Positions 11,618 through 64,000 of a stretch of DNA of 64,000 nucleotides are shown one piece after another. Numbering within the stretch: the first letter of the stretch is position 1; each line of letters starts with the position of its first letter. Source of the stretch: Candidatus Omnitrophota bacterium (lineage in GTDB: Bacteria; Omnitrophota; Gorgyraeia; Zapsychrales; Fredricksoniimonadaceae); the NCBI GenBank assembly GCA_903944345.1, contig CAJARJ010000012.1, positions 4,266 through 68,265 of the forward strand, in the 5' to 3' direction. The position numbers and the translations under genes were made by a program. Under the pieces are notes generated by a model. The model saw nothing but the letters and a program-made list of their open reading frames with translations. It was not told the DNA's origin and did not search any database.

Positions 11618-11621
11618 AAAC

Positions 11622-33788: not shown

Positions 33789-33791
33789 GTG

Positions 33792-37370: not shown

Positions 37371-39926
37371 CTATTGGAAGATGGAAACAGCCGGATCAAC
37401 TATCCGGTCGATCCCGATAATCCGCGGTGAAAGTCCTGCTCTTACGGCCGGCAGAGTGGCTGAATCGATATTAAAATGAATCGGTCCACCATCATTAGCG
37501 ATATCCAGCTTCATATTGCGAGTGGACATATCAATACCACCCACCGGCTCAACCGCCTGACTCGCATCGGCTATTCTTTTATGCAAAACATCCTGACTCC
37601 AGTGATCCTTACTGTCTTTCACTGACCGATAATCGTTAGCGATGGCCTCAAGAGACTCTGCAATCGTTCTGTCCCACCCACCCCATGTGCCCGCAAACTC
37701 TGGAATCAATCCCCTTGAATATTTCAACGCCAGATCATACGGATTGGAATTTGCGTATTCAACAAGATCCGCATCGACAATCAAAACTTCCGGAGTCCCG
37801 TCCTGGGCGGACTGAAGAATAAAATTCGCAGCTCGGGGGTCATTTATCAGGATTCCTCTGCCTACAAGTGTACGGAACAGACGGATAAGAGCCTTGATAA
37901 TGTCCTCGTTCATTGTACCGGCGGCAATCACCTTATCCAGAGAGTCACCTGACATCCATTCCACAGCCAGAAGTTCTCTGCCATTGGTAGCCTTGATCAC
38001 TGCAACCCATGCCGGACCAACTCCCTCTTGTTCGACTATTCTGAAACCGTCTTTAATCTCCTTAAGAACAGTATCCATCCTGATCGGCGCCCGAATAGCC
38101 ATATGCTGGTTTTTATAGACATCATGGTTACCGCCAGATCCGACATATTCCTGCTGAACCCCTTTCATAATCAAGGTTTTTTCTCTTCCCTCAACCTGAA
38201 CGGGTTTCGACCGGCCCAGATGAATCAGCTGGGAGAACCGCTTGAGAGAAAAATTCATTAAAACACGCTGAAGCTGTCGTTCTAAAGAGGAATCATCTAT
38301 CTCCAGCACAACCTGATGAACACCAGGCCCCAGAGCAGGCAAAACCAGGTCATTAAGAAGAAGATAGTTCATCGGTTGTTGCCAATATTGACGCCAGAGT
38401 TCTTTATTGGTTATCTTCCTGATAATGATCATTTTCTCACCATACTGCCCGGCATACACGTCTTCGTTATCAGAAGACTTCAATAATCTGGTCTTCTCGA
38501 CATTATCTGTCACAAAACCACGTAAAAAACGCCGCCTTGTATTCTCAAGATCTTCATTAAAAGCAGCCACAGATGTCCCGAGCGAATCAAAAAAAGTCGC
38601 CATGCCCGGACTAGTGCGCTGATAAAGAAAGGTTTTAACAACTACCTGGCTTAACCTGAGAATATAATCCGGGGTAGCCTCTCTCCTTGAAATATCCGGT
38701 TTCTGCGCCATATCTGTCGATATATCCGAACGGCTGTCCTGAGGCTCTACCAAAACTCCTACTCTTATCAACCCTTGCGGATTATTAGCAAAAAGATTGC
38801 TGGAAATCTCCTGTAGGGATGCACGTTCCATCGCTTTATCGAAGTCCGGCGCAAACCCGCCCGAGAAATATTTGCGCAATAGCGGGTCACCCGAAAAAGG
38901 ATCCGCCTCTTCTTTGATATAACTAAAAACACCCTGCCTGAAAGCGGCCATGTATTGCTGGTAAATTTCATTAAGTACTTTGGGATCTCTAAGATTAACT
39001 CCATCCGTCTTGCCTTTGTCAACGTACTGATCGTACAAGATACCTTCCTTGACCTTGCGCTTGTACCATGCCGCCAACGCCATGGAGTAATAAATCTTGC
39101 GCAACAAGGCGAAACTTTCACCATCATTGATTTCTTTCTCGATAACAGGAAGAATAATTTCACGCAACCCGGGTTGAACCTGATTTTCTTCGGCCTCGTT
39201 ATGGACACTATTGCCAGATTGCACCTTCTCCGCCAGATAATCGCGCTCCAGCGCGACTTTCATCCTGGCATTCGCCAGCATGGCTATATTTCCATTCTCA
39301 TAAAACGCCGCTTTGTCCGGGCTGATCCAGACTTTATTGAAAACATCAAACGGAATATCAGTAGTTCCAAAGGCTTCCTGCGCACGCCGATAAACGTCAG
39401 TCCAGAATTTCTTCCCCAACGGTGCCTCGGGGTATACAAGAGAAGCCATAATCTGTTTGAGCATATAATCCTGAGCCAACAGGTCACGCCCCATCTCGGT
39501 ACGGGCAAAATTTTCACTAACAATCCGCTTATCTTCATAAGGAGAAAGGTTGACCCACTGCTCCTCTTCCGGAACAGTCATTGCTGCCAGAAAATATTTA
39601 ACCAGTCTCTCGGATTCAGCGGTCAGCGCCTCACCGGAAAGCAGCTCGTCTCCCTGATCCATAAAGAAATTAAAACGAAAAGGATTATTGATGTCCACCT
39701 GAATGCCAACCAGGCAAGCGGGCTTGAACCCGTGGCTGACATCAACCATAGATCCCGGCAACGGCAAGGCTACGCCTTCAATGGCATATACCGGCAAAGA
39801 ATTGATGAATAACACCTGAACAATAATAATATGAAATAGAATGCGAAACATCAGTTTCTCCCAAACATTCAAACTTTCAGAATTATGAAACTTACCACCC
39901 GATAATAAATATAATATATATATCAA
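37371..39926 (-). CDS. Large secreted protein, paralog 2: same N-terminal domain and C-terminal tail, with a putative kinase-like internal module
   Basis: 851 aa with a signal peptide. The N-domain is FRFNFFMDQGD, WVNLSPYEDKR, TEMGRDLLAQDYMLKQ, GTTDIP, LAAWYKRK and RKYFSGGFA. The internal region has a Gly-rich loop VGSGGNHDVY, ILINDPRAANFIL and LIVDADLV, which suggests a kinase-like fold. The tail is GGIDM...AGLSPRIIGIDR. Confidence 0.8.
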   Translation of the reverse strand: MIYILYLLSGGKFHNSESLNVWEKLMFRILFHIIIVQVLFINSLPVYAIEGVALPLPGSMVDVSHGFKPACLVGIQVDINNPFRFNFFMDQGDELLSGEALTAESERLVKYFLAAMTVPEEEQWVNLSPYEDKRIVSENFARTEMGRDLLAQDYMLKQIMASLVYPEAPLGKKFWTDVYRRAQEAFGTTDIPFDVFNKVWISPDKAAFYENGNIAMLANARMKVALERDYLAEKVQSGNSVHNEAEENQVQPGLREIILPVIEKEINDGESFALLRKIYYSMALAAWYKRKVKEGILYDQYVDKGKTDGVNLRDPKVLNEIYQQYMAAFRQGVFSYIKEEADPFSGDPLLRKYFSGGFAPDFDKAMERASLQEISSNLFANNPQGLIRVGVLVEPQDSRSDISTDMAQKPDISRREATPDYILRLSQVVVKTFLYQRTSPGMATFFDSLGTSVAAFNEDLENTRRRFLRGFVTDNVEKTRLLKSSDNEDVYAGQYGEKMIIIRKITNKELWRQYWQQPMNYLLLNDLVLPALGPGVHQVVLEIDDSSLERQLQRVLMNFSLKRFSQLIHLGRSKPVQVEGREKTLIMKGVQQEYVGSGGNHDVYKNQHMAIRAPIRMDTVLKEIKDGFRIVEQEGVGPAWVAVIKATNGRELLAVEWMSGDSLDKVIAAGTMNEDIIKALIRLFRTLVGRGILINDPRAANFILQSAQDGTPEVLIVDADLVEYANSNPYDLALKYSRGLIPEFAGTWGGWDRTIAESLEAIANDYRSVKDSKDHWSQDVLHKRIADASQAVEPVGGIDMSTRNMKLDIANDGGPIHFNIDSATLPAVRAGLSPRIIGIDRIVDPAVSIFQ

Positions 39927-44255: not shown

Positions 44256-45302
44256 TCAAAAGCAGCGCTGCTTGTTTTTCTTCACGCAGTTTTTCTCACA
44301 GCGATAGCAAATTTCATTAGGAAGAAAACCTCCGCGCAGATAATCCTGAATATTATCCAACGTCGTGCGTGCAATACTTTCCATAGCATCCCTGGTGAAA
44401 AACGCCTGATGCGCCGTAATAATAACATTGGGAAAGGTCAGCAAGCGTGCCAGAACGTCATCAGCCACTACCTTGGAGGACAAGTCTTCAAAGAAATATT
44501 CACCTTCCTCCTCATAGACATCAAGTCCCGCAGCCCCCACCCGGCCGGACTTAAGGGCTCTTATCAGCGCACGGGTATCAAGTAACTCTCCACGTCCGGT
44601 GTTAATGAGCATGACGCCGTCACGCATCTGTTCAAAAGCCTGGTCGTTAACCAGATGCCTGGTCTGGGGAGTCAGCGGACAGTGCAAGGAAATAATCTGC
44701 GCCTCCCGGTAAATCGTAGGTAAATCCACATACGAAACGCCAGTCTCTGCGGCATAAGTCTGATCAGGAAAAGCGTCATAGGCCAGTATTTTCATACCGA
44801 ATCCCTTCAGAATGTTCACCAGACAACGGCCAATTCTTCCGGTTCCGATAATGCCGGCCGTACGCCCGTGGAGGTCATAACCAAGAAGTCCATCAAGCGT
44901 AAAATTACCGTCACGCACACGATTATAAGCACGATGTGTCTTGCGGTTAAGTGTAAGAACAAGAGCCGCGGCATGCTCGGCCACAGCATATGGCGAATAG
45001 GCAGGCACACGCACTACGTGCATGGCGCCATAGGCCGCCTTAAGATCCACATTATTGTACCCGGCACAACGCATGGCCACCAGCCCCACCTTGCTCTCCC
45101 GAAGAGCGGCAATTGTTTCACTGTCCACGGTATCGTTAACAAACACACACGCCGCCACACAGTCTTTAGCCATGCCCGCGGTATCGGCTGAAAGGTGCAC
45201 AGACAAAAACCTGATATCAAAAGGGTAATCTTTCAGAATGGCCGAGAAGAACTCGCGATCATAACTGCGGGTATCATAAAAAGCGATCACAGGCTTGCTC
45301 AT
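44256..45302 (-). CDS. ldhA: D-isomer-specific 2-hydroxyacid dehydrogenase (D-lactate dehydrogenase-like)
   Basis: 348 aa with the NAD-binding GIIGTGRIG, catalytic R...E...H (MLINTGRG, HQAF), and a Cys-rich C-terminal tail. Confidence 0.8.
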   Translation of the reverse strand: MSKPVIAFYDTRSYDREFFSAILKDYPFDIRFLSVHLSADTAGMAKDCVAACVFVNDTVDSETIAALRESKVGLVAMRCAGYNNVDLKAAYGAMHVVRVPAYSPYAVAEHAAALVLTLNRKTHRAYNRVRDGNFTLDGLLGYDLHGRTAGIIGTGRIGRCLVNILKGFGMKILAYDAFPDQTYAAETGVSYVDLPTIYREAQIISLHCPLTPQTRHLVNDQAFEQMRDGVMLINTGRGELLDTRALIRALKSGRVGAAGLDVYEEEGEYFFEDLSSKVVADDVLARLLTFPNVIITAHQAFFTRDAMESIARTTLDNIQDYLRGGFLPNEICYRCEKNCVKKNKQRCF

Positions 45303-45317
45303 AAGAACTCCTTTTTT

Positions 45318-46253
45318 CTAGAACAACGGTCCGGCCAGACGATTAACCAGAGCGATGAACACCGGTATAGTGACAATCGAAAAGACCGTACTGACAAAAA
45401 CACAGCGTGAAGCCAGGGCCGTATCAGAACCAAATTTCTCGGCAAAAGCCGCAGTATTGGCCGCCACAGGCATAGCCAGACTCAACACACAAACCCCCAG
45501 TGCCAGTCCGCGCACCCCGCAAACATACATTCCGCCCAAAGCTATCGCGGGGACTAAAAGCAGGCGAACAAAAGCGGCATAATAAACCTTCCTGTCGCCA
45601 ATAACCTCGCGAAAAGGCATCCCGGCCAGCATGGAGCCGATAAGGATCATGGACAAGGGCGTTGTCGTGGCTCCCAGCATATCAAACGCTTTCGCTACTG
45701 GAGAGGGCAAATGCCACGACAGAAAAAACATGACCAGTCCCGCCAGCACAGCAAGCAGTCCCGGATTAAAAAATACCTTTCCCCAGGACACCTTTTCTTT
45801 ATCACTTCGAAAGAGATATATCCCCAGGGTCCAGAGCGAAATAATAAACGGGACTGTAAAGACCGAACCATAGAAAACGCCGATCTTGCCATACAGACTG
45901 TACAGGACAGGATAGCCCATAAATGCACAATTGGAGAAAATCGCTGTAAATCGCAAAACCTGACGCTCTTGCCCCGAGTAGCGGCGAAAAAGGAAGCCGC
46001 CAAGATAGAAACTGAAAGTATGAAAGAAGGCGGAAAACAGGAATACCTTGAGCGCAGTAGCTGCCATGTCCGCGTCAAAGGCAATATTAAACGCACCAAG
46101 GATCATAAGGGGCATGGTAACATTCAACAGCAACTCTGCCAGCCCGCGGTTCATTCCGGGATCTATCAATCCGCGCCACCGAGCCAACGCCCCGACTGAA
46201 ATTAAAAGAAAAAGAATAAGCACCTCATTAACCACACCCATGAAACACTCCAT
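45318..46253 (-). CDS. AEC-family (auxin efflux carrier / malate permease-like) transporter
   Basis: 311 aa, 10 TM, AEC membrane transport fold. Confidence 0.75.
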   Translation of the reverse strand: MECFMGVVNEVLILFLLISVGALARWRGLIDPGMNRGLAELLLNVTMPLMILGAFNIAFDADMAATALKVFLFSAFFHTFSFYLGGFLFRRYSGQERQVLRFTAIFSNCAFMGYPVLYSLYGKIGVFYGSVFTVPFIISLWTLGIYLFRSDKEKVSWGKVFFNPGLLAVLAGLVMFFLSWHLPSPVAKAFDMLGATTTPLSMILIGSMLAGMPFREVIGDRKVYYAAFVRLLLVPAIALGGMYVCGVRGLALGVCVLSLAMPVAANTAAFAEKFGSDTALASRCVFVSTVFSIVTIPVFIALVNRLAGPLF

Positions 46254-46387
46254 TCATCGTTATGCCAGAAAAAATATCCCTGAAGATTGGTCGGTGGCAG
46301 GTTAAGTACCTGACGAGTATAATATATCCTACTCTATGTATTAACAAAGGCAAAAAGCCCATCCAGCAGTATGGACAGGCTTTGGAA

Positions 46388-48668
46388 TCAATAATTCTGT
46401 GTGTCACTAATTATTTTATACGGATCTATAGAGATAATAACCGGTGAGAATCCGGCAGCGTTCTGCATCTGCTGAAGCTGCTCAGAGGTCAGGTCTACCT
46501 CGATTGCAGTGCTATTATTCCGTGTCTCAAACTGGGCATTGTCGGGGTTCAGGTTAATACCACCGACTGCTTCCTGCCCAGGCAGAGAAGACAAGGGCTT
46601 TTCCATCAAAATTCCCCATTCTTCATTCATCCTCCGGGACAACTCCCAGGATTTCTGCAACAAACTTCCTCTATTGCGGCTCTTGAGCAGCGCAAGAACT
46701 TCTTCCGCATAAAATTGCTGATCCTTATCAAGAACAAGTGGTTTATACCCCAACATTCTATACAAAACAAAATTGGCTAATCCGTGAGGCAAAGTGCTGC
46801 CAATTACAAGAGAATCATAACCAGACTCGACTGCCAGTTCCTCGAGAGACTTAAGAATACTTTTAAATAATGCGCCCGCGTAAGGGAAAGATGGATACAT
46901 CTGTGACGGATACAACATGCGTTCCTCGTTTCGCAAGCGCTCCAGCAACAACTGCACGTTTGTATCATCGTCTTTCACCTTCAGAGCCGATTCAATTTGC
47001 GTTTGTCTCAGGCCCACGCTGGCCTCAGCAAAAGAAAGAAGAACTTTGCGATCCTGCCAGTCAAACTGCGGTAAAGCTTGCATAAACACGCCCTTTAACT
47101 GCTCCAAAACTTTCTCCAAATTACGCTTTCCCCACTCATCTGACCCCATCCAGATTTTCTGCGTCAGGATTACAGGTGACGAGGTGGTCATCTCCAGATG
47201 GGCCCGGCCGATGATTAACGAGTTGCGATCAAAACCACGACCATTCAATAAATTAAATTGGATAAAAACACCCTGATTATTCCTGTAGACAAGATCGTAA
47301 CTGTCGAAATCATCGGACTGGATTATCTCTCCCAGAAGCGTACGGGTTGTAAGCGTTCGCCCGGGGCCTCTTAAGATATCAACTTGCGGCTCATCATAAT
47401 ACTGCGACAATATCCCCTCCAGACGCTCTTTCTGACGTTCAATCAGCCGGCTAAACTGCTCTCTATCCGCTCTGGAACGTTTAACCTTCAGTTTGGGTAA
47501 AACAGACTCCTGAGCCGGATCTCCTGGCAGAACAGAGGTCTCTTCACGAACAATCACCAGTCTGTCAGCAGCACTCGGCCCCAGGTCAACCGGCCATACG
47601 TCCGATTTTACTGTCAGAGAACTATCCATTGCCCAATCAATACCGCCGGAAAAATATTTTCTGACCAACACTTCGTCAAACAATGCATCAGGTTCTTCCT
47701 TAATAAAATCATACGCGCCCTTGCGGAAGGAAACGACATAATCCTTCCAAATACGGTCCACTTCCCCGGGGTCTGGAATATTTATTCCGGCAACCTTATT
47801 CCGGTCAACGTAAACAGCGGACAATAATGATTGTCTGATCTTTCGTTTATACCAGGCGGCAAGAATCAAAGACTGATAAACCTGTCTGAGCGTCGCAAAG
47901 TTCTTACCTTCATTAACCTCTCGCTCCAGTTCAGGAATGACCATCGTACGTAAAGCTTCCTCCATCATCATATGATCCGGACTTGCGGTTTGGGGCACCG
48001 CACTTTTTTCTTGTGCCAGATAATCACTTTCCAGCTTAACCTCCAAGTGAGATTCGGTTACATAAGCCAGCCCCATCTCGCCATTCTCAAATACTACAGC
48101 TTTTCCAGGAACAATCCAAACCTTGTTCAACGTATCAAGCGGAATATCCGTAGTGCCATATTTTTCCAGGATCCGGGCGTAAATTCTCTTCCAGAATACT
48201 TTTCCAATCTCCCCTTCAGGGTTAAGAGTCTTTGCGGTGATTTGCTTGAGAAAATAATCCTGCACCAGTAAATCTCGCCCCATCACAGTCTGCCCAAAGG
48301 CTGGGGGAACGATGCGATTTCTTTCATATGGACTCAGGTTAACCCAGAGGTCATTTTCAGGAATTGTCAGGCTGGCAAAAAAAATATTTAATCAGACGGG
48401 TTGATTCACTTTTGATCTGGTCATTAGTAATTCTTTCATCGCCTTTATCAAGAATAAAATCAAACCTGAGCGGATTTCGAGGATATACCCTAATTCCTTT
48501 TAATACAGGCGGATTGAACGCCGGACTTAAAGACACCACCTGACCACCGGGAGGAGTCAAAATCGGCTCCCCGGCATACAGAATAACTGGGCTCAAAACA
48601 TGTGCCAGAACTATCCAAATGATGACAAATTTTCTTAGAAACATGAAGGAAAGATACCTGACCAACAC
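46388..48668 (-). pseudogene. Large secreted protein, paralog 3: frameshifted in an A8 homopolymer, with its 3' end overwritten by an element terminal repeat
   Basis: The N-terminal ORF 48357-48668 (signal peptide, then LRFDFILDKGDE...KYFFCQPDNS-stop) and the ORF 46388-48286 (MMGRDLLVQDY...) are joined by a +1 shift inside a run of 8 A (48377-48384). With 7 A the reading is KYFFASLTIPENDLWVNLSPYERNRIVPPAFGQTVMGRDLLVQDY, collinear with paralogs 1 and 2. The last 9 codons (KIISDTQNY-stop) are encoded by the element TIR at 46391-46415. Confidence 0.7.
46391..46415. repeat. Solo terminal inverted repeat of the 133-bp element (inverted left end)
   Basis: AATTCTGTGTGTCACTAATTA matches 21 of 21 of the reverse complement of the element's left end (AATTAATTAGTGACACACAGAATT). 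No internal element sequence follows. Confidence 0.6.
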
Positions 48669-48742
48669 CTGTTTTGCAAATATTTATAATACGAAGCCAA
48701 GTTGCAGTGATGCTGGAGGACATGTCTTATAGCGTAAAGCAA

Positions 48743-48775
48743 TGACACAGAATACAATAAAACAATTCTGCGTGA
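48743..48775. repeat. Collapsed mini-copy of the element: both TIR halves separated by 8 bp
   Basis: TGACACAGAAT-ACAATAAA-ACAATTCTGCGTG, about 70-110 nt upstream of the paralog 3 start. Confidence 0.5.
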
Positions 48776-48836
48776 TAATCATTAACAGAGCTTCCTCCCT
48801 TATGGAAAATTGCGGACGGTCTATGGGGGGGACTAA

Positions 48837-49175
48837 TTATTTAATGCTCAGAAAATTGTTCAGATTATCATCTCCAGCCAGAACGATTGCGATATCCCCC
48901 GCCGTCGTTATTTCCCGCACGGTATCTACCTCGCCCCTTAACGTCACAATCTCCCTTTCAACAGTAACATCAATGTTGTCCAGCACCCCAGACAAGGACG
49001 TTTCCCGACCTAAAGCATCTTGAATATCTATAGCCAGGTCATTATCGATTCCCGTTGTATTCATCCTTGATCCGTCTTTAAGGTCTGCCAGAATTTTTGC
49101 ATTCTGCGAATCTTCATTTAACTTTTCATTTCTCTCCAACGATAACCCTGTCAAAACTGCCTGGGAATTTAACAT
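48837..49175 (-). CDS. BON-domain (OsmY-like) protein
   Basis: 112 aa BON domain pattern (LADLKDGSRMNTTGIDNDLAIDI...GEVDTVRE), preceded by the RBS AAGGAGAA. Confidence 0.65.
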   Translation of the reverse strand: MLNSQAVLTGLSLERNEKLNEDSQNAKILADLKDGSRMNTTGIDNDLAIDIQDALGRETSLSGVLDNIDVTVEREIVTLRGEVDTVREITTAGDIAIVLAGDDNLNNFLSIK

Positions 49176-49226
49176 TGTATTCTCCTTGATAAAGTTGAAT
49201 AAAACCGGGACTCCCGCCTCTTAAGA

Positions 49227-49264
49227 CTATTCTAGGACGCAGCCGGAATGTATCAATTGTACCG
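49227..49264 (-). promoter_or_regulatory. Conserved promoter motif copy A (TTGATA-N16-TAGAAT with a conserved spacer), upstream of the BON gene
   Basis: Minus strand CGGTACAATTGATACATTCCGGCTGCGTCCTAGAATAG, identical at 32 of 38 positions to the motif at 53292-53329. Confidence 0.55.
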
Positions 49265-49299
49265 GGGTTTAACAAATGAAACCTGGACGCACCACCCCC

Positions 49300-49962
49300 T
49301 CAGGGCTGTTGAATCCTGCCATCCTTCAAAAGAATCTGTCGCCGGGCAAGTCTGGCAAAATCCGGCTCATGCGTCACTAACACAACCGTAGTCTTGTTCT
49401 TTAGATTGACATCGATAAATATTTTCATAACTATATCGCCATTGACACTGTCCAGGCTACCGGTCGGTTCATCGGCAAAAAGGTATTGCGGTTCCATCAC
49501 AAGCGCCCGGGCGATGGCTACCCGTTGCTGTTCCCCGCCCGAAAGCTGACGCGGCAAGCGGGCCATCTTCTCTTTGAGTCCGAACTGCTCCAACAACGAC
49601 TCCGCGGCAGGCCGCCGTTTTTCCTTCTGATGAAGTTTTACTGTAGGCATAAGTACATTCTCGAGCGCGGTTAACTCTGCGATCAGATAATGAAACTGAA
49701 AAACAAACCCCATATGCCGGTTACGAAAAAGGTGAAGATCGTCGGAATTCAATTTCTGCAAATCTTTCCCGGATATTTCAATCTTTCCTTCACTGGGTGT
49801 ATCCAGACTGCTTAAAAGGTACAAGAGCGTGCTTTTCCCCGATCCGGAGCGTCCGGTCAATGCAACAAATTCACCGTCCTGTATCTCCAAAGAAATATCG
49901 CTCAGAACCCGGCTTGGCGGAACACCTATCTCTTTCCCGGCATGTTGAACCACAATACTCAT
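49300..49962 (-). CDS. ABC transporter ATP-binding protein (LolD/MacB-ATPase type)
   Basis: 220 aa with Walker A GRSGSGKST, signature LSGGEQQR and Walker B LFADEPT. Confidence 0.85.
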   Translation of the reverse strand: MSIVVQHAGKEIGVPPSRVLSDISLEIQDGEFVALTGRSGSGKSTLLYLLSSLDTPSEGKIEISGKDLQKLNSDDLHLFRNRHMGFVFQFHYLIAELTALENVLMPTVKLHQKEKRRPAAESLLEQFGLKEKMARLPRQLSGGEQQRVAIARALVMEPQYLFADEPTGSLDSVNGDIVMKIFIDVNLKNKTTVVLVTHEPDFARLARRQILLKDGRIQQP

Positions 49963-51213
49963 CTAAGCTCCTGAGCGAATAATCTGAATAGGAGTAAATC
50001 TGCTGGCAGCGAGGGCCGGCAGGATGCTTGCAAAAGACGATGAAAAAAGCGACAAGAACAATGCCTGGACATAAATCCCGGGAGAGAGTGAAATTTGCAG
50101 GTGTGCCTGGGGATCATACGAACTACCGCCTGAGAAAGGAATAGTTTGCAAATACAGGCATAGAAAATACCCGCATACCAGCCCCAGCAGGCCACCACAA
50201 ATGCCAATAATAATCCCCTGTGAGAAAAACAGTACAACCACATCATATGTGTCATACCCCATTGAGCGCAAAATCGCAATGTCCTGCCTTTTCTGCGTAA
50301 CTGTCATGTTTAGAATATTGTAAATACCAAAACCCGCTACAATTATGACCGTCATTGTCATGGTCCAGCGCAGAATAGTTTGCAATCTGATAACCGAAAG
50401 AATGCTGGCATTCTGCTGGTCCCAACTTTCAGTGCGTTCCGGCGCAATTCTGGACCAGTTGGTGGCTATGGCGGCCGCCTGAGTGTAATCGCTCAGGCGC
50501 ACCCCGATCTCATTAACCTGATTGGGAGTCCCGTTCAGCTTCTGAACGTCATTTAAAGCCCCGTAAGCCTGCGTATCGCTCCCCCGATTTCCTGTCCGAA
50601 ATCGGCCCACAACTTTGAAAGGCACAGGCAAGCCGGTTTTAACCGCCACCAAGAGGGTCTGATCAATGCCGGCTCCAAGGCGTTTCATCAATTCATCTCC
50701 CAGAATAATCCGGTTCCCTCCCGCTCCAATATCGGAAAACTCGCCTTCAATCATGTAATTGGCAATACTTGTCACCTTGCCTTGCTGTTTCGGGTCACAA
50801 CCGACCAGATTGGCTGAAACAGAAACTTTAGCCAAGGTGAATAAAGCCGGAGCTGTCAATAACGGAGCAAAAGCCTCAACCCGCGGATCCGCCTTCAGTC
50901 GTTCATACCAGCTTTGAGGATTCTGAATCCCCAAATAACCGTGTACTCCTGATGGCGGAGATCTCCAGAAGACGTATCGGAACTCCTGGTTGTAAAATGC
51001 TTCGTCAAGTTGATGCTCAGTCAGATAATCTTGCCGGGCCTCGATATGTATCTGTGCCGAATTATTAACAAGCTGCTGAATCATGAATGTCTGAAAACCC
51101 GTAAAAAAACCGGTGACCGCGACATAAGCCAGAGCACCTAAAAAGACACCCAGCAACGTAAAGATCGTCTGCTTTCTGCGTTCCAGAAGATAGCGGATAG
51201 CCAGATAAATCAT
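49963..51213 (-). CDS. FtsX-family ABC transporter permease (LolCE/MacB-type, one periplasmic domain)
   Basis: 416 aa with four TM helices and a large periplasmic loop between TM1 and TM2, the FtsX/MacB-type permease architecture. Confidence 0.8.
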   Translation of the reverse strand: MIYLAIRYLLERRKQTIFTLLGVFLGALAYVAVTGFFTGFQTFMIQQLVNNSAQIHIEARQDYLTEHQLDEAFYNQEFRYVFWRSPPSGVHGYLGIQNPQSWYERLKADPRVEAFAPLLTAPALFTLAKVSVSANLVGCDPKQQGKVTSIANYMIEGEFSDIGAGGNRIILGDELMKRLGAGIDQTLLVAVKTGLPVPFKVVGRFRTGNRGSDTQAYGALNDVQKLNGTPNQVNEIGVRLSDYTQAAAIATNWSRIAPERTESWDQQNASILSVIRLQTILRWTMTMTVIIVAGFGIYNILNMTVTQKRQDIAILRSMGYDTYDVVVLFFSQGIIIGICGGLLGLVCGYFLCLYLQTIPFSGGSSYDPQAHLQISLSPGIYVQALFLSLFSSSFASILPALAASRFTPIQIIRSGA

Positions 51214-52022
51214 TTGTTAAGGTCTTTCCGCACAAGAACACGATCACCAACCCGAAGATCCCCGGAGACAATTTCACTCATAGCCTTGTCGATGATCCCT
51301 GTCTTGACTTCTGCTCGTCTGGGAATTTCATTCCCACGCTTTCGCCAAACATATTGTCCCTGCTCCAGCGCGGCAACCGGCACAAGCAGCACATCCGGAT
51401 GCGTTGCTATTTCGATAGCCACATCCCCGGTCATATCCGGTAATATTCTTAATGGCAAATCCGGAACGCTGATGCGAGCCAGAAAATTACTGTCATTGGG
51501 ATACACCGATTCGACAAGGCCGTTGTAACTCTGACTGCGAATCGTATCGAAACTGACCTTTACCTGCTGCCCTGCCTTGACCTGTAACGCTCCCTGTTGC
51601 TCCAGAGACACCATCAGATATCGTTCCCGCAAATCCACCAGAGAAAGGGCTGAACTCTGCGGATACACATTCTCGCCGACCTTATAAGGAAGAAATGTCA
51701 CGGTTCCGTCAAAGGGAGCCGAAAAAACATTCTCATCAAGATTTATCAGCGGATCACCTTTTTTTACGGCATCACCTTCTTTTACATACAAGGCCATAAC
51801 TGTGCAAATCAGCCCCGGGCGCAGCTGATAACTGTTGCGGGCGGTAACCGTGCCAATACCGTAAACCGACTCGACAATCGTTCCCTTTTGCAAAGGTTCG
51901 GACAAATCACCCGCTGATCGTGCCTTAACAATATTGAGCAGCCAAAACCCCGCCAACAGGAGCACCGCAAATAGCACACTCCAGAAACGATGCGTACTGA
52001 TCCAGATTAAAATAGCTCGCAA
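51210..52022 (-). CDS. Efflux transporter periplasmic adaptor (short HlyD/MacA-like membrane fusion protein)
   Basis: 270 aa with an N-terminal TM anchor, biotin-lipoyl-like and beta-barrel segments (YVKEGDAVKKGDPLINLD...), directly upstream of the FtsX permease and ATPase. Confidence 0.7.
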   Translation of the reverse strand: MRAILIWISTHRFWSVLFAVLLLAGFWLLNIVKARSAGDLSEPLQKGTIVESVYGIGTVTARNSYQLRPGLICTVMALYVKEGDAVKKGDPLINLDENVFSAPFDGTVTFLPYKVGENVYPQSSALSLVDLRERYLMVSLEQQGALQVKAGQQVKVSFDTIRSQSYNGLVESVYPNDSNFLARISVPDLPLRILPDMTGDVAIEIATHPDVLLVPVAALEQGQYVWRKRGNEIPRRAEVKTGIIDKAMSEIVSGDLRVGDRVLVRKDLNK

Positions 52023-52064
52023 TATTCCCGCCTCAAATTGACGTTATCCAGTCCGGCATACAAT

Positions 52065-52265
52065 TTAACAGCTGCATAAATACTTCCGGCCACCGTTATT
52101 GACCATATGCACATGTCCTTCTCTGACCAGCCAGCCGATGCCCATATCTGTCAGACCTTCCGCATTGTTCAAATGTGATCGCACCTCTTCAAGACTGACC
52201 GGACGTTTCTTTTGATCGATAAGATTCAGAATATCCCCGGAAGCAATACCAATTTGTGTCATCAT
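52065..52265 (-). CDS. Small hypothetical protein (possible winged-helix fold)
   Basis: 66 aa with no strong family signature. Weak confidence. Confidence 0.35.
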   Translation of the reverse strand: MMTQIGIASGDILNLIDQKKRPVSLEEVRSHLNNAEGLTDMGIGWLVREGHVHMVNNGGRKYLCSC

Positions 52266-52408
52266 CTTTCTCTCCGTTTCTTTATACCCTTATTAGTTGT
52301 CGTAGCAAAGAATCAGCACCATCCGGATCGGTCGACACCAGATGCATTAGTAATTCTAAAGCAGGAAAAAAAGAAGACAATTAGACCGGGGTATAACTGA
52401 GAAAACAC

Positions 52409-53197
52409 TTATCTACAACCACCGCGTGAATTCTTTTCCGGGGTTGCCGATGGTTTGCCATACCAATACGCCTGACGCTCATAATGTTTATGCAGTTGTT
52501 CCTCATAATCACGGGTAGGCAAAGACTCCGCCGTGTATTCCGGAGATTTCTTGATAGTCTCGACTGAAAGACTTATATAAACTTTCGACTCATCCCAACT
52601 CACGCGCTCGATCCATTGTGGCGCCACCAGAACTTTTTTCCCGTGCCACCAATTCTTTGTATCAACGACCAGATAACGAATTGCCCAGGACGCTTCATCA
52701 ATAATAAAATCATCGATATGGCCGATCTCTCCATCCATGGCCTGAATGTGATACCCGCTTACGCTTTGCGTGCTACGCAAATGCGGATCCCACCCTTTCC
52801 CGGTTTGCACAGACTTCTTCCATTGCGTCTGATCACGCACAATACCGGGATACCCGCCCCACATAAATGGACCTTCCCAGTACACAGGATATCCATAATA
52901 TTTATGATAAACATCCTCGAACTGTCGTGAAACAGGCTTGTCGCTATCGAGCGAGGGACTATCCTCAATCTGCTTTCTGCTAAGACCAACAACAATACAC
53001 TGCTCCTCCTCCATCACGGCGCCCAACGCATACGGGGAGATCAAAACCTGCCGGCCTACGAGCCAATTGCCTGTGTCCGCTACCAGATAGCGAATCGTCC
53101 AGTGCTGATCATCGAAATAGAATTCCTTGACCCTGCCAATCTCCTTGCCATCATTGTTTAATTTGAAACCGTTTAGTGTTTTGGCTTTATAGAGCAT
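52409..53197 (-). CDS. Tandem PRC-barrel domain protein
   Basis: 262 aa with two repeats of the PRC-barrel pattern (WTIRYLVADTGNWLVGRQVLISP and WAIRYLVVDTKNWWHGKKVLVAP). Confidence 0.7.
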   Translation of the reverse strand: MLYKAKTLNGFKLNNDGKEIGRVKEFYFDDQHWTIRYLVADTGNWLVGRQVLISPYALGAVMEEEQCIVVGLSRKQIEDSPSLDSDKPVSRQFEDVYHKYYGYPVYWEGPFMWGGYPGIVRDQTQWKKSVQTGKGWDPHLRSTQSVSGYHIQAMDGEIGHIDDFIIDEASWAIRYLVVDTKNWWHGKKVLVAPQWIERVSWDESKVYISLSVETIKKSPEYTAESLPTRDYEEQLHKHYERQAYWYGKPSATPEKNSRGGCR

Positions 53198-53291
53198 TCC
53201 GAACCTTTCTGTTATCCAATTTCCTCTGTGAGAGAATATACGAGCCGCCCAACAGAGCGGACGGGTTAGATCGAAACTTTCTCTCGTAATT

Positions 53292-53329
53292 CTATTCTAG
53301 GAAGGATCAGGAATGGTTCAATTGTACCG
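53292..53329 (-). promoter_or_regulatory. Conserved promoter motif copy B (TTGAAC-N16-TAGAAT), upstream of the PRC-barrel gene
   Basis: Minus strand CGGTACAATTGAACCATTCCTGATCCTTCCTAGAATAG, paralogous to the motif at 49227-49264. Confidence 0.55.
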
Positions 53330-53410
53330 AAGTATTACTGCGAAGAAACTGAACAAATGCCACTTTCAGAACGGGCTGATCGCCCCGGACAACAGCCAGC
53401 GTAAATCTAT

Positions 53411-54235
53411 TTAATTCTGTAACTGTTTCTGGATTAAATTCCTGATTTTCTCTGAAACAATCTCCCGGCCCATTTGAGGACTCTCAAGATCAACAACCAA
53501 AACCGTTTGGGGATCATCCCAATTAAACTTTTTGTCATTATTTATATCACGCACGATTTCAATAAAAAGCTTGCGAACTTTCTCGTCGAAATACCATGCT
53601 TTCATCTGGGCATTTTCCGGTGTAACCTGGGTCAGCTTCAAACCACCCAAAGCCGCGATAAATCCTGCTGAAGCGTCAATCTGATTAATGACACCATCAT
53701 TATTCGTATCGTACCGGGCCATTTCGATCAACATAAAAGTTGGCCGGACGGCGTCTTTTTCTTTGTTATAATTCTTTTCAGGAAAATAAATACTGGTAAT
53801 ATACCCATTATCAGCAAGAAGCGCCCTGGACTCACCTGTCAGCTTGTTAACAAAGATTAAATTGTAATATGGTCCACCGTAACCATAGGAATAGCTCCCC
53901 CGCCCCCAACTATCACCGTCGTAACTCTTTGATGCCGAGGCCCTTGAATAGAGACCTATTCTCTCTTCTCCATATTTTCTTTTCTCCAGCCTGACAGGGA
54001 CAATAAAATGATCCAATTCGCTTACCGATAAAGGTAAGCCGAATTCAACAGATAACTTCAACTCCTCATCGCTGCTGCGCGAATCGACTGCAAGCCCCTC
54101 AACGTGATGCCTTTTATGTCCAACAAACGAAAACAACATGCCGACGACCATAATTAGAAAGCCCGCAAGGAAAACAACTCCGACGGAAATACCCACAATT
54201 CTCCAGATCCGGGACAATATTTTATCAAAATCCAT
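53411..54235 (-). CDS. Hypothetical membrane-anchored protein with a Gly/Tyr/Ser-rich segment
   Basis: 274 aa with an N-terminal TM helix and a low-complexity SYSYGYGGPYY stretch. No family recognised. Confidence 0.45.
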   Translation of the reverse strand: MDFDKILSRIWRIVGISVGVVFLAGFLIMVVGMLFSFVGHKRHHVEGLAVDSRSSDEELKLSVEFGLPLSVSELDHFIVPVRLEKRKYGEERIGLYSRASASKSYDGDSWGRGSYSYGYGGPYYNLIFVNKLTGESRALLADNGYITSIYFPEKNYNKEKDAVRPTFMLIEMARYDTNNDGVINQIDASAGFIAALGGLKLTQVTPENAQMKAWYFDEKVRKLFIEIVRDINNDKKFNWDDPQTVLVVDLESPQMGREIVSEKIRNLIQKQLQN

Positions 54236-54366
54236 AACGACTTTCCTTTCGGGGCACCACTGATTTCAAACTTGTCCTGATTTCATGCGTGTTGAATTCT
54301 ACCGGCGCTTTTCAGCGTCATATATGCAACATAAACATAGCATATCAACGTTATTACATCAAAACG

Positions 54367-57300
54367 TTAGCATAACTGCCCCTTTGCACTCTCGGGAACA
54401 TAGCCGACGGCTTTGGCCAATCTTGTACCGACCCAAATTCTCAACCGATCGATATATGAGAACGTTGCCGGAACAACGATCAGAGTCAACAGAGTCGAAC
54501 TAATCAACCCGCCAATAATAGCCACTCCCATGCTTGTCCTTTGACTAGATGTCGCGCTTAAACCAACAGCAACAGGAATCATCCCGGCAATAAGCGCAAA
54601 TGAAGTCATCAAGATCGGCCTTAGCCGTATCTTGCAGGCCTGAACCGTTGCCTCTGGACGACTCAATCCTTCTCGCATTTTATGACAAATGTAATCGACG
54701 AGAAGAATCGAATTCTTACACGCCACACCCAGCAACATGATCATCCCCAGGAATGTAAACATACTCATCGACTGATGAGTTACCCAAAGGGCCACAAAAG
54801 CACCGCAAATAGCAAGCGGCAACGCCAGCATAATGGCAAACGGCATAATAAACGATTCGTACAAACTGGCCAACACCAAATAGATAAACAGGATTCCCAT
54901 CCCCACCGCTGTCATCATAGATCCCAGCATTTCCTGGTAACGTTCGGACTCTCCCCCATAGATGACCCGAACCCCTTCCGGCGGAGGCAATTCTTTTTTC
55001 ATCATAACATCCACATCTCTCATCACATCGCCCAGACCAACACCGGGATTCAATCCTGCTGTAACCTGAACATACCGACCACGATCCATGCGCTTGATAG
55101 ATGCGGCCCCTCGCTCTTGATTAATGTCGGCTACGTCGGTCAATTTGATGAGTCTGCCGTTAACATTGGGAACATAAATCTCGCCATAATTCTGGCTCAA
55201 ATCCCTCTGCTCCGGGAGCAACCGCACGCGGATGTCATACTCCTGCCCGTTTTCTCTGAACTTTGCCGGCTTATCTCCCTCAATCTGGGCATGAATCTCA
55301 TTGCCAAGCGTTTTGGTATTTATCCCATAAACCCTGGCCTTTTCCGCATTCAACTTGATCTGGATTTCCGGCTTACCCAACCGGGCATTGGAATCAACGT
55401 CTTTAAGCCGTTTATCTTCATTCAACTTTGCCAGAAGTTTTAAGACATATTCATCCAGCACCTTTGTGTTTGTCGAAACAAGATTCAACGTAAACGGCTG
55501 GTCTCCGCCCCCGCCAACCGGATCATAATTATTGACCTTCGGATTAGCTGAGGCCAAAACTTTTAATTTTTCACGGAGATCGACCTTGGTCTTCTCCGTT
55601 GAAGTCGAACGTGCTTTTCCCTCTTTAAGTTTGACATAAATGCTGGCTTTATACGGCTCGTTGTTGCTTCCGCCGATCTTTAATTCCGTCAACTCTACAT
55701 CGCTGTTCTGATGAATAATCTCATCTGCCTGTTTACCAACCCGGTTCATGGCATCGAGATTTATTCCCGGTGAAAGTTCCAAAGAGACTGTGAACTGTCC
55801 GTTATCAGCCGTCGGCATAAAGTTTAACGGAACCTTGGCCAGGGAGCTACATGCCACAATAAAAACCAGAAAACTGATCAGCAATGTTCGTTTGGGATAC
55901 TGCACAACCCAACGAAGAATGACTTCATAATACTTTTCAAGCCAGTCCTGAAAAGCGCTAAAGGCGGACAACAATCTGCCAACGGTCTTGTCCCATAAAG
56001 AAAGTTTATGCGCCCCTTCTTTCTTATTTGTACCGACAGCAAGGTAAGTTGACAGCATCGGGGCAATCGTCAATGAATCAAATAAGGAAATCAGCATAGC
56101 AAAACACACTGTTAAGCCGAACTGTCGCATAAAAGTCCCCATCATGCCACTCATAAGGCCAACAGGGGCAAAGGTCGAAAGGACAACCAATGTTGTCGCC
56201 ACAACCGCCAACTGAACCTCCTGTGTTCCTTTAATCGAAGCCTCCCTAGGACTCATTCCCCCTTCAATCTTCCTAAAAATATTTTCACGAACAACAATGG
56301 CATCATCTATTAAAAGGCCGACTGCCAGACTCAGCGCCAACAAACTTATCACATTGAGCGAAAACCCGGCAACAGCCATCAAAATAAATGAACCGATCAG
56401 GGAGTTTGGAAGGGCAAGTCCGGTAATTATAGTCGAGCGGCCATTTGCCAAGAAGAAATAGACAACGAAAATCGTAAGGAAGATACCGATGAGAATTGTT
56501 TCTTCAACGTCTTTAATATTATCCCGGATCTCTTCGCTGGAATCTTGCAAGACCTCAATCTTCGGCTTTCCGGCCATTAAATCGAGCGTCGGTTGAAGTT
56601 TCCTGATCTGCGACATAACGCCATCAGCCACCGAAACGGTATTGGTTCCCGACTGACGGTATACTTCGATCAACAAGGCTTTCTTGCCGTTAACATAAAC
56701 ACGGGATGTTTCATCCTGTAATGTGTCCTGGACTATCCCAAGGTCGGAAACTCTTGTTGCCACCTCATTGTTATAAAGAGTTACCATTGTTTTTCCAATA
56801 TCATCAACATTGGAAAACTCGCCAAGGCTACGAAAAGTCGTTTCATTGTCGCCCTGATTAACAGTACCTCCGGGGACGTTCTCTCCAGTTGACGACAAGC
56901 GAGCGGCTATATCTGTGACCGTCAATTCCCGGTCTTTCAGAATCTTTCGGTCAAGCGTGACATGGATTTCTCTCTTTCTGCCACCGATAATCTTGACCGA
57001 CCCCACGTTCTCCACCCGCTCCAATTCCGGTTTTATCGTCTGGTCGGCGACATCGTACAGCTTGCCATCATCCAGATCACCTGACACGACCAGCTGAAAA
57101 ATAGCCTGGCCTGCCGGATCCATCTTGGTGATCGTTGATTCATCCACACTATCGGGAAGTTGCGGCTTTACCTTGCTGACCTTGTCCCTGACCTTCTGCT
57201 CAATTAGCCGTGAATCAACGCTCATTTGAAACTCAGCTGTAACCTGACTTGTTCCTTCCATGCTCGTTGATGTGATCCGCTTGAGCCCCGCAATCGTGCT

Positions 57301-58967: not shown

Positions 58968-59031
58968 ATACTATCTCCAATGCCACAAGTAATCGAACAC
59001 TTACTATAAGCATACGGCCCGTAGTTGCATT

Positions 59032-59059
59032 TGTCAAGTATGTACTCGATTACTTGACA
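59032..59059. promoter_or_regulatory. Candidate TetR operator palindromes in the tetR / tolC-RND divergent region
   Basis: TGTCAAGTA-N10-TACTTGACA is a perfect 9-bp inverted repeat. A second inverted pair CAAGTAATCGA (58986-58996) / TCGATTACTTG (59046-59056) lies nearby. Confidence 0.55.
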
Positions 59060-59103
59060 AGCTGATTATTTCAACATAAACTTACTTTCAAGGAGATCCC
59101 ATT

Positions 59104-59718: not shown

Positions 59719-59745
59719 AAATACGACCGGAATTTCTTCTGACGG

Positions 59746-59878
59746 AATTAATTAGTGACACACAGAATTGTTTCTTGACATTCTTTACGACAATTAAACT
59801 TGTTGCAGGTCTGGATTTTTTCATTGCAATAGAATGTAACAGAATGTGATAGAACAATTCTGTGTGTCCCCGATTATT
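59746..59878. mobile_element. 133-bp MITE-like element, copy A, with 18-bp terminal inverted repeats
   Basis: AATTAATTA-GTGACACACAGAATTGTT...(about 100 bp)...AACAATTCTGTGTGTCCC-CGATTATT. It is 98% identical to copy B at 61822-61954 and lies between tetR and tacA. Confidence 0.7.
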
Positions 59879-59994
59879 TTTCTGTACGTAATCGATCCGG
59901 CCTCAAAGACGGCGGTGTTATGATCATAAATTATTTAGTGTGGACAAAGTGTGTACGGAATGGTATCCTTGAATCGTAAAAGAAAGGATCACCT

Positions 59995-60270
59995 ATGCCA
60001 GTTATACAAAAAGACACCCGCATTGACCTGAGGATCGAGAACTCCCAAAAGGACTTCCTGGTCTATGCCGCAGGTCTCAAAAACATGAAGCTCTCCGCTT
60101 TTGTATTAAACAGCGCGATCAAGGAAGCCGAGGATCTGGTGGCCAGCAAGACCCAGTTTGCACTGCCAGATGCCCAATGGAAGGCCTTTAGCGCGGCTTT
60201 GGACCGCCCTGCGCGCGAGAACCCCAAGCTCAAGAAACTCTTCAAGTCAGCCGATGTTTTCCATGGATAA
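59995..60270 (+). CDS. tacA: DUF1778/TacA-family ribbon-helix-helix antitoxin
   Basis: 91 aa (RIDLRIENSQKDFLVYAAGLKNMKLSAFVLNSAIKEA), preceded by the RBS AAGGA. Its stop overlaps the toxin start as ATGGATAA. Confidence 0.8.
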   Translation: MPVIQKDTRIDLRIENSQKDFLVYAAGLKNMKLSAFVLNSAIKEAEDLVASKTQFALPDAQWKAFSAALDRPARENPKLKKLFKSADVFHG

Positions 60271-60909: not shown

Positions 60910-61809
60910 TCACCGATTATATTCGTAGTGCACACTCCGTCCGCCGCCGGAGGCTTGCCGTAACAAGCCTTTTTCGACCATATCCGAGATCTCACGGAAC
61001 GCGGTCGCCCTGCTCGTGCTCCCAAGGCTCACATATTTCCGGGTCGTCAAACCACCGACAAATTCACCCGGCCCGGCATCCAGCATCCGATTAAGGATCT
61101 TCTTTTGACGCTCATTGAGCTGAACTTGCGCGTGCTCTGCCCAAAAATCCGCCTTCAAAAGGACCTTGCCCATTATCTTTTCCGACTTCCCGATGGCGCG
61201 CTGATAACACCCAAGGAACCACGAGAGCCAGCCTGTGAGGTCCAGATCAGCTGTCTTCGAGTTCTTCTCGAGGATCTTGTAATAGTCATCCCGCTCTTCC
61301 ATGATCTGGGATGAAAAGCTGTAGTATCTCACCTTGAGTTTCTCGTCCTGCGCGAGCGCCATATCAGTAAGGCTCCGGGCAATACGCCCATTGCCATCCT
61401 CAAAAGGATGGATCGTCAGAAAATAAAAATGCGCCACCCCCGCGCGCAGAAGCCCGTCCACACTGCCGTGGCTTTCCTTCCACCACTGAAGGAATCTTTT
61501 CATTTCACCATCGACCTCGTCCCCGGGAGGCGCCTCAAAATGGATACGTTCACGCCCCACTGGCCCCGAAACAACGCGCATAGGGTCGTCGTGGCCTCTC
61601 CATTGAGCGACGCGGATCTTATGAAGTCCCGAGTACCCTGTCGGAAAAAGAGCGCCATGCCATCCAAAAAGCCTCTGCTTATTCAAAGAAATATCGAATT
61701 TCCGGGTCGCGTCCAGAACAACCTCGACGAGCCCATCAACAGACCTGGATGAACCCCCGAGACCCGCTGTGGGAAGCCCCAGGTGCCTTGCCACTGAGGA
61801 GCGGACCAT
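60910..61809 (-). CDS. fic: Fic/DOC-family protein (AMPylator-type) with a C-terminal winged-helix domain
   Basis: Fic motif HPFEDGNGRIARSL. The first ATG is at 61809 (MVRSS...). The track uses a TTG at 61821 that abuts the element. Confidence 0.8.
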   Translation of the reverse strand: MVRSSVARHLGLPTAGLGGSSRSVDGLVEVVLDATRKFDISLNKQRLFGWHGALFPTGYSGLHKIRVAQWRGHDDPMRVVSGPVGRERIHFEAPPGDEVDGEMKRFLQWWKESHGSVDGLLRAGVAHFYFLTIHPFEDGNGRIARSLTDMALAQDEKLKVRYYSFSSQIMEERDDYYKILEKNSKTADLDLTGWLSWFLGCYQRAIGKSEKIMGKVLLKADFWAEHAQVQLNERQKKILNRMLDAGPGEFVGGLTTRKYVSLGSTSRATAFREISDMVEKGLLRQASGGGRSVHYEYNR

Positions 61810-61821
61810 CTGCAAATTCAA

Positions 61822-61954
61822 AATTAATTAGTGACACACAGAATTGTTTCTTGACATTCTTTACGACAATTAAACTTGTTGCGGGTCTGGATTTTTTCAT
61901 TGCAATAGAATGTAACAGAATGTGATAGAACAATTCTGTGTGTCACCGATTATT
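61822..61954. mobile_element. 133-bp MITE-like element, copy B, with perfect 18-bp TIRs
   Basis: Same sequence as copy A with 2 mismatches, and perfect TIRs GTGACACACAGAATTGTT / AACAATTCTGTGTGTCAC. It is followed by a tandem 11-bp duplication CCGATTATTCC x2 (61946-61967) that overlaps the stop of the Ank-RES gene. Confidence 0.7.
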
Positions 61955-61960
61955 CCCCGA

Positions 61961-63985: not shown

Positions 63986-64000
63986 TATTGACCTTCTGTC

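Follow-up and report, generated by a model that had tools for sequence, protein, structure and literature searches.

The 3′ end of paralog 3, a gene on the minus strand of the window (the whole 64,000-nt stretch of Omnitrophota DNA that we analyzed), is homologous to the end of a 133-bp palindromic repeat, and resemblance to the rest of the gene family stops at the same place. The protein lacks the conserved motif with which its relatives end, and this state is fixed in all assemblies that we sampled. The explanation that we favor, and hold to be quite likely as a whole, is that insertion of a MITE-like element, followed by loss of most of its interior, rewrote the end of the gene. The features on which our analysis rests are collected in Table 1.

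Table 1. Positions of the paralog 3 locus, its relatives and the copies of the 133-bp element (window coordinates; copies without coordinates lie outside the window)
Feature	Position	Strand	Remarks
Paralog 1, 940 aa	34527..37349	-	metallophosphatase middle domain; ends ...FIIDIRPADTTLFVFLGL
Paralog 2, 851 aa	37371..39926	-	ends ...RIIGIDRIVDPAVSIFQ
Possible displaced native tail, 15 codons + TAG	46334..46381	-	in frame after TGA and two codons (F, Q): SLSILLDGLFAFVNT-stop
Hairpin, 12 pairs, then T-run	46354..46383	-	begins 4 nt after TGA; looks like an intrinsic terminator
TGA stop in use, paralog 3	46388..46390	-	at the junction of element-derived and flanking sequence
Paralog 3 main ORF, 632 aa	46388..48286	-	family N-terminal domain, private middle domain, C-terminal domain up to ...GFSPVIISIDPYK
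28-nt stretch resembling element ends	46390..46417	-	palindromic outer AATAATT/AATTATT, 12-nt core
Exact copy of left terminal inverted repeat, 21 nt	46393..46413	-	gene strand reads TAATTAGTGACACACAGAATT
Paralog 3 end codons	K624 46415-46417; I625 46412-46414; I626 46409-46411; S627 46406-46408	-	
Paralog 3 end codons, continued	D628 46403-46405; T629 46400-46402; Q630 46397-46399; N631 46394-46396; Y632 46391-46393	-	
Paralog 3 N-terminal fragment ORF, 103 aa	48357..48668	-	signal-peptide-like start and beginning of conserved domain
T8 run with frameshift	48377..48384	-	T7 would restore KYFFASLTIPE
Element copy c1, full 133 bp	59746..59878	+	between TetR gene and tacA-tacT genes
Fic-family gene	60910..61821	-	lacks ~72 N-terminal codons, cut exactly at left end of c2
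Element copy c2, full 133 bp	61822..61954	+	98% identical to c1; left end adjoins truncated Fic gene
Element copy c3, 90-bp variant			different center; between ankyrin gene and AbiJ-like gene
Element copy c4, right end cut			adjoins partial repeat of tRNA-like 3′ end
Element copy c5, full			94.7% identical to c1; contigs from other metagenome samples, different defense-type genes
Element copies c6 and c7, truncated			other contexts, other metagenome contigs

The 21-mer AATTCTGTGTGTCACTAATTA occupies positions 46393-46413 of the plus strand, and exact copies of its reverse complement lie at 59749-59769 and 61825-61845, where two 133-bp repeats (c1 and c2) have their left ends. The right ends of these repeats also match, with 3 mismatches at 59856-59876 and 2 mismatches at 61932-61952. 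In all, the window holds 5 matches to the 21-mer at three or fewer mismatches, where 0.00 were expected (100 shuffles). An initial observation that 21 of 21 nucleotides at the end of paralog 3 match the inverted left end of the element, made in a first-pass annotation of this DNA, is confirmed, and the shuffles gave no match. A longer but imperfect similarity extends over 28 nt (46390-46417), of which 26 are complementary to the c2 left end. The first-pass annotation had derived the last nine codons of the gene from the terminal inverted repeat, which holds for the 28-nt stretch only; the exact 21-mer spans six whole codons, I626-N631, plus parts of I625 and Y632. No part of the TGA stop belongs to the exact match, and the 28-nt stretch takes in just its final A. 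In total, the 21–24 nt that remain of the element supply the tail IISDTQNY, the eight codons that precede the stop.

The full copies c1 and c2 are direct repeats of one another, each bounded by imperfect terminal inverted repeats of 36–39 nt that are 79–83% complementary and share the core TAAT[TC][AG]GTGACACACAGAATTG. The element is predicted to fold as one long hairpin (−51.2 kcal/mol, z −7.3). An Rfam scan of positions 45000-64000 gave no match on either 133-bp copy, the element has no Pfam match and is crossed only by spurious small ORFs, and a consensus scan found no outward promoter within it. At 133 bp, or 90 bp in c3, it is short and without coding capacity of its own, as MITEs are. 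The family has at least seven copies, several of them truncated at one end. Copies c1 to c4 and the leftover in paralog 3 are found in assemblies of the source organism, with c3 and c4, which lie just outside the window, reached through look-ups of neighboring proteins; c5 was found by searching with the peptide that the element would encode. Copies c5 to c7 are 92–95% identical and have different neighboring genes, so that the family, again like a MITE, occupies multiple loci. Assemblies often break, or scaffold through runs of N, inside the element. ARAGORN detected no tRNA next to c4, whether or not introns were allowed.

The flanks of c1, c2, c3 and c5 show no variable direct repeat. Both element ends carry a constant TTA/TA, which could be a duplication of a fixed target or part of the repeat itself, and the flanks of c2 and c3 are rearranged; at c2, the right end leads into a tandem repeat of CCGATTATTCC (61946-61956 and 61957-61967). 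We know of no transposase gene whose ends match. Exact 18–20-mers of the repeat had 0 real matches in 185,579 GTDB species genomes, an exact scan of JGI metagenomes for the repeat end returned 26 matches that were all due to chance, viral contigs contained no match to the repeat end, and plasmids and phages gave no BLAST match to the element. Given the outcome of these searches, the argument for mobility comes from the multiple contexts of the copies and from nothing else, and since we found neither a clear target duplication nor a parent transposase, we use the label MITE-like. In two cases the left end of a copy adjoins a gene fragment. For the Fic-family gene next to c2, alignment to PDB 8cil_A does not begin until residue 73, and the left end of c3 adjoins a C-terminal fragment of an IS3-type transposase (rve_2). 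The element family is thus repeatedly associated with cut genes.

To place the altered end of paralog 3, it helps to consider the family to which the gene belongs. A search for this family returned 784 matches at E ≤ 1e-5, with 45–62% identity over the N-terminal third. Its members are mainly from Candidatus Omnitrophica/Omnitrophota, and among the matches listed, all source names that carry a taxon are Omnitrophica. They consist of a conserved N-terminal region of ~300 aa, a highly variable middle domain (metallophosphatase, kinase-like, methyltransferase, GNAT, M23 and others) and a C-terminal domain of ~60 aa; the conserved parts have no Pfam or NCBIfam model. Close to the C-terminus, the family pattern is GGID/N...GF.PVII.I.P, then [LM].[DNS]L..FLG[LIV], plus a short tail. 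Among 160 retrieved homologues, 126 have the G..P.II motif near the C-terminus, and in 114 of these an F[LFM]G-type motif comes next; a related hydrophobic motif is present in 11 of the remaining 12. The columns after the conserved P are L or M, T or K, D, N or S, L (96/127), two variable positions, F (108), L (102), G (91) and then L, I or V.

Paralog 3 matches this consensus through IDPYK and diverges where the repeat end starts. The first part of the C-terminal domain is present, and [LM].[DNS]L..FLG[LIV] is missing from the ORF, which ends ...GFSPVIISIDPYKIISDTQNY-TGA. Scored with a profile HMM of the family C-terminus, the real protein reaches 68.2 bits, and truncating it at PYK leaves the score unchanged; the element-derived tail thus contributes nothing. 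The position-matrix score of IISDTQNY, −17.8 bits, places it at the 44th percentile among random 8-mers. Fourteen residues follow G..P.II in paralog 3; the family median is 20. Family homology ends within two residues of the start of the repeat and within one codon of the outer boundary of the element-derived stretch, and this boundary was set independently, as the point at which c1 to c5 and c7 cease to resemble each other (between ...N and TTAATTAG). Two members of the family, P0010 and P0020, also end early, and do so without any known element. As no insert-free allele or ortholog was found, our view of the ancestral 3′ end comes from the family consensus only.

According to the first-pass annotation, the new tail had replaced an I[D/R]P end seen in the other paralogs. 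However, paralog 3 retains IDP and lacks the segment after IDPYK, and both other paralogs continue past I[D/R]P for 10–11 residues, to ...IRPADTTLFVFLGL and ...IDRIVDPAVSIFQ.

The altered 3′ end is not the only lesion in this gene. A +1 frameshift, due to an extra T in the T8 run, separates the 103-aa N-terminal ORF from the main ORF and splits the family N-terminal domain, of which the conserved sequence (...LWVNLSPYE...GRDLL.QDY...RKYFSGG) is present. The T8 run also occurs in an independent contig, and all gene calls in the 90% cluster begin after it. The remaining 632 codons are still open. A full HMMER scan found no ortholog of the middle domain above 34% identity; a word-index search with this domain also gave no match, but it missed the gene's own cluster as well and is hence not trusted. 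Reading of TGA as a sense codon was considered and rejected, since 14 of the 39 large ORFs of the window terminate in TGA. With two separate lesions, the T8 frameshift and the element-derived 3′ end, paralog 3 looks like a decaying paralog and is probably a pseudogene. Annotations should mark it as probably pseudogenic, with both lesions noted.

How might the present end have arisen? On the gene strand, the sequence reads ...CCG TAT AAA / ATA ATT AGT GAC ACA CAG AAT TAT TGA / TTC CAA AGC CTG..., with slashes marking the limits of the leftover and the stop. The outer seven bases on each side of the leftover are inverted copies of one another (AATAATT ... AATTATT) and could form a small hairpin, and a c5-type copy likewise has AATTATT as its right terminus (CACCAATTATT). 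Judged by its sequence, the leftover resembles an element that has undergone internal deletion but retains a left terminus (21–24 nt) and a right terminus (ATT/ATTATT). We infer both the order of events, insertion and then deletion, and the deletion mechanism. A 133-bp hairpin-forming MITE-like copy would have landed in the last few dozen coding bases of paralog 3, right after K624. Later, slippage or deletion at a short AATT repeat, spanning the long palindrome, would probably have removed most of the inserted element. A deletion from the AATT of the left repeat (between CAGAATT and G) to the AATT/GATT of the right terminus would produce precisely ...CACAGAATT-ATT, with loss of ~110 internal bases and retention of both tips. 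Read in frame, the leftover would then supply I-I-S-D-T-Q-N-Y followed by TGA at the junction, resulting in a protein without the conserved end of its C-terminal domain. Internal loss of this kind is consistent with the instability of long palindromes and with the many truncated copies in the family.

The proposal that the element, or a recombination at its terminal inverted repeat, truncated the gene needs to be qualified accordingly by what is seen at the junction. The repeat-derived tail, the stop of homology at that point and the missing C-terminal motif all agree with it. However, the length of the protein is barely reduced, and the leftover seems to be an internally deleted copy with both termini rather than a bare left repeat.

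The junction itself is the same wherever the locus was found: in JGI, Logan and ENA assemblies, in 6 of 6 members of the 90% cluster and in three 99%-identical contigs (L001, L028 and L029); the cluster members and these contigs also have the same frameshift. At least four assemblies, from different pipelines and different samples, share it, and the junction is therefore not an assembly artifact. Among the assemblies found, including those from look-ups of neighboring proteins, none has an empty site or an intact allele at paralog 3. Nor did we see presence/absence polymorphism: all assemblies around paralog 3, TetR-TacA and Ank carry the same copies, in a narrow sampling that probably represents a single population.

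Several other origins for the match can be weighed against element insertion. If the similarity were due to chance or convergence, or if the element had copied its repeat from the 3′ end of paralog 3, the AT-richness of the outer bases would be the only point in favor. Against these readings stand the empty shuffles, the occurrence of the same core at both ends of every copy, which makes the core a feature of the element, and the misfit of the encoded residues to the family profile; we see almost no room for either. A chimera of contigs mis-joined at a short shared repeat is scarcely credible too. This repeat family does break assemblies elsewhere, but the stretch shared here is just 21–28 nt, below the k of 141 nt to which the names of the MEGAHIT contigs (k141_...) point and probably also below the k-mers of the other assemblers, and the differently made assemblies agree on the junction. 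It is harder to dismiss, though still improbable, that the 133-bp repeats are recombination sites, integron-like or otherwise site-specific, that bound cassettes in a tRNA-adjacent defense island, with the 21-mer in paralog 3 as a recombination scar. Four copies in the same orientation divide ~12.5 kb into blocks (HTH/M78-SMODS...AbiJ; Ank; Fic′-TacTA), no copy has a variable target duplication, one scaffold joins c1 (right half) and c4 (left half), as would be expected of a circle or a tandem copy, and the right terminus and its flank are tandemly duplicated at c2 and c3. However, the chance of finding four copies in one orientation is 1 in 8, and the scaffold join runs through 100 N inside the repeat and so may be an artifact. 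The 22 kb examined contain no integrase or recombinase gene, direct reading of the element ends shows no attC cores (RYYYAAC/GTTRRRY), and the Rfam scan of 45000-64000, made with whichever integron-site models that library includes, had no match to the repeats. Furthermore, each block contains between one and about twelve genes, these lie on both strands, the repeat has cut one gene, and copies with truncated ends also occur in unrelated contexts. An integron attC array in particular was rejected, as there is no IntI in those 22 kb, no core site and no Rfam match on the repeats. It is likewise improbable, in our view, that the repeats go beyond selfish MITEs and serve as recombination substrates of an integrase-less cassette shuffling that rebuilds the tRNA-adjacent defense island, with the scar in paralog 3 as collateral damage. 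For such shuffling, the four same-orientation copies would bound SMODS/AbiJ, ankyrin and Fic/TacAT blocks, and a c1/c4 circle junction is suggested by the one scaffold.

If, as we favor, an element inserted in paralog 3 and then lost its interior, what became of the native tail? We give about an even chance to its having been deleted together with the interior of the element, in which case the hairpin just downstream is the true terminator. That the tail survives in frame just after the stop is possible, but we are inclined to doubt it. Read past TGA in the same frame, the sequence gives F Q S L S I L L D G L F A F V N T, with TAG at 46334-46336. In-frame removal of 33 nt restores ...IDPYK-SLSILLDGLFAFVNT and raises the HMM score from 68.2 to 73.5 bits (removal of 24 nt gives 69.5 bits), SLSILLDG, placed where the profile would have it, gains +6.5 bits (P = 5e-4 against all six-frame 8-mers), and the closest middle-domain relatives end in N[IL]PLLLG. 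With a 33-nt insert and an intact native tail, the uninterrupted sequence would read ...CCGTATAAAAGCCTGTCC..., and with a 24-nt insert, ...TATAAAAGATTCC.... Against survival, the DNA of the possible tail (46354-46383) is a 12-pair hairpin with a T-run. Only two such sites occur in the window, with none inside 55.8 kb of same-strand coding DNA, and among 200,000 simulated family-type tails, back-translated with the codon usage of the window, such a hairpin arose in 6.5e-5 (12 pairs) to 4.3e-4 (10 pairs). Given this rarity, the hairpin is probably a real terminator outside the native coding region, and a real terminator should not lie 14 nt upstream of a stop codon. A coding-tail hairpin as a trait of the family was also considered; the closest middle-domain relative, P0121, has no hairpin in its coding tail. 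The peptide match and the hairpin statistics thus point in opposite ways with similar weight. The same hairpin, with its scarcity in the window and in the simulated tails, would also suit a gene that had already ended ...IDPYK-TGA, into which a 24-nt leftover was inserted in frame before the stop to add eight residues. The uninterrupted sequence would then read ...TATAAATGATTCC.... Removal of ATAATTAGTGACACACAGAATTAT does leave ...CCG TAT AAA TGA TTCC and then the hairpin, a textbook gene end. Such an extension is nonetheless unlikely: the FLG-type motif is missing in only 1–2 of 126 family members, insertion must have struck the exact boundary between last codon and stop, and the in-frame SLSILLDG after the stop would have to be a coincidence, at the P per 8-mer given above. 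Whether the native tail was deleted or displaced, the element cost the protein its conserved end.

Paralog 3 illustrates on a small scale how a mobile palindromic repeat can rewrite a protein's C-terminus and all but disappear afterwards, with 21–24 easily missed bases as its trace. The element seems to represent an undescribed MITE-like family of Omnitrophota; a full-text literature search found no paper describing MITEs in this phylum. The element is similar to integron attC sites, which are imperfect palindromes of 57–141 bp that are highly similar within an array and often have toxin-antitoxin cassettes between them; it differs in having no IntI and no R″/R′ core sites, and in bounding multi-gene blocks on both strands, with one gene truncated by the repeat. 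Like the Correia elements of Neisseria, ERIC and BOX, which are bacterial MITE-like repeats of intergenic regions (PMC10969869), it falls within 100–200 bp, has terminal inverted repeats and multiple copies, would form hairpins in transcripts and affects neighboring genes. Correia elements have a defined TA duplication as well as functional promoter, IHF and RNase III sites, whereas the promoter scan of the 133-bp element was negative.

The closest parallels concern the event itself, which is of a type already known and opens no new question, since the same effect is documented for the QMITEs of Coxiella and the palindromic elements of Rickettsia. In Coxiella burnetii, insertions of QMITE1 and QMITE2 in the 3′ ends of functional genes contribute both stop codons and C-terminal residues, and protein length changes little (PMC5896051). 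The element described here resembles them as a small, palindromic, non-coding repeat with terminal inverted repeats and many truncated copies. In contrast, QMITE2 has unique 7–9-bp direct repeats at each copy and a link to IS1111, and here neither a target duplication nor a partner IS is seen; moreover, the copy in the gene is reduced to 21–24 nt, the host belongs to the Omnitrophota and the sequences share no similarity. Rickettsia palindromic elements are repeats of ~150 bp that lie inside protein-coding genes and are translated in frame (PMC10969869). In that case, whole elements add an internal peptide and the host gene stays open, whereas in paralog 3 a fragment alone is left and the reading frame has been ended.

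A defence-type island that starts in the window and continues on contig L040 holds, in a stretch of about 12.5 kb, four copies of the 133-bp hairpin-forming MITE-like element, all in the same orientation. The island encodes an HTH_31/Peptidase_M78 protein, two SMODS-domain proteins, AbiJ_NTD4, a 674-amino-acid ankyrin protein, Fic' and TacAT, and is flanked by recR on one side and a TetR/RND operon on the other. The Fic-family gene lacks approximately 72 N-terminal residues (alignment to PDB 8cil_A begins at residue 73), the cut falling precisely at the left end of c2, a full element copy. An intact tacA-tacT pair adjoins this truncated gene.

At two copies, c2 and the 90-bp variant c3, the terminal 9–10 bases of the element's right end, together with 2–4 flanking bases, are tandemly doubled. 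Since the repeat units differ, these duplications look like independent events. Copy c3 also contains the start of a 79-amino-acid ORF with an rve_2 fragment, corresponding to the C-terminal part of an IS3-type transposase; this ORF and the beginning of the ankyrin gene overlap. A single scaffold, L039 (listed a second time as L043), runs from the right half of c1, the other full copy, through 100 N into the left half of c4, the copy whose right end is cut. This join could represent a circle or tandem junction, or it could be a scaffolding error.

Rfam places a group I catalytic intron approximately 8.5 kb past the window end (60.9 bits versus a gathering score of 50), and a tRNA-like 3′ end, GGTTCGAGCCCTCGCGGGGGAG, follows it. 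ARAGORN called no tRNA at this site, whether or not introns were allowed. About 20 nt of the tRNA-like end are repeated approximately 200 bp away, adjoining c4, in a manner that resembles the attachment-site repeat of an island.

Coordinates of the element-associated features and of the paralog family
Feature	Sequence	Position	Strand	Detail
Paralog-adjacent pilin-like genes	window	33270-34310		
Paralog 1	window	34527-37349	-	
Paralog 2	window	37371-39926	-	
Paralog 3	window	46388-48668	-	main ORF 46388-48286; N-terminal ORF 48357-48668
T8 run	window	48377-48384		
Defence-type island	window; L040	59746-64000 and beyond; 1-14300		
tacA-tacT	window	59995-60766		
Fic-family gene	window	60910-61821	-	junction with c2 at 61821/61822
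Tandem duplication at c2	window	61946-61967		CCGATTATTCC, x2
Tandem duplication at c3	L036	~9207-9232		ACCGATTATCTTT, x2
rve_2 ORF	window; L038	63963-64000; 4869-5108		79 aa
Group I intron	L040	1275-1530	+	

The 103 N-terminal codons of paralog 3 are out of frame with its main ORF as a result of a T8 run; a T7 run in its place restores KYFFASLTIPE. An independent contig carries the T8 run too, and every gene call of the paralog 3 cluster begins downstream of this run. It may represent either a fixed lesion of a pseudogene or a slippery, phase-variable tract.

A full HMMER scan with the 354-amino-acid middle domain of paralog 3 recovered its own cluster plus relatives at 26–34% identity, and a whole-protein search likewise recovered the 99–100% identical cluster. 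A word-index search with the same domain returned zero matches; because it missed even this known cluster, that negative is untrustworthy.

The three paralogs belong to a large family whose members come mainly from Omnitrophota, and pilin-like genes lie directly upstream of paralogs 1 and 2. Family members consist of a conserved N-terminal region of approximately 300 amino acids and a C-terminal domain of approximately 60, neither matched by a Pfam or NCBIfam model, between which an enzymatic middle domain is freely swapped. This architecture of conserved ends and exchanged middles is similar to that of polymorphic effector families.
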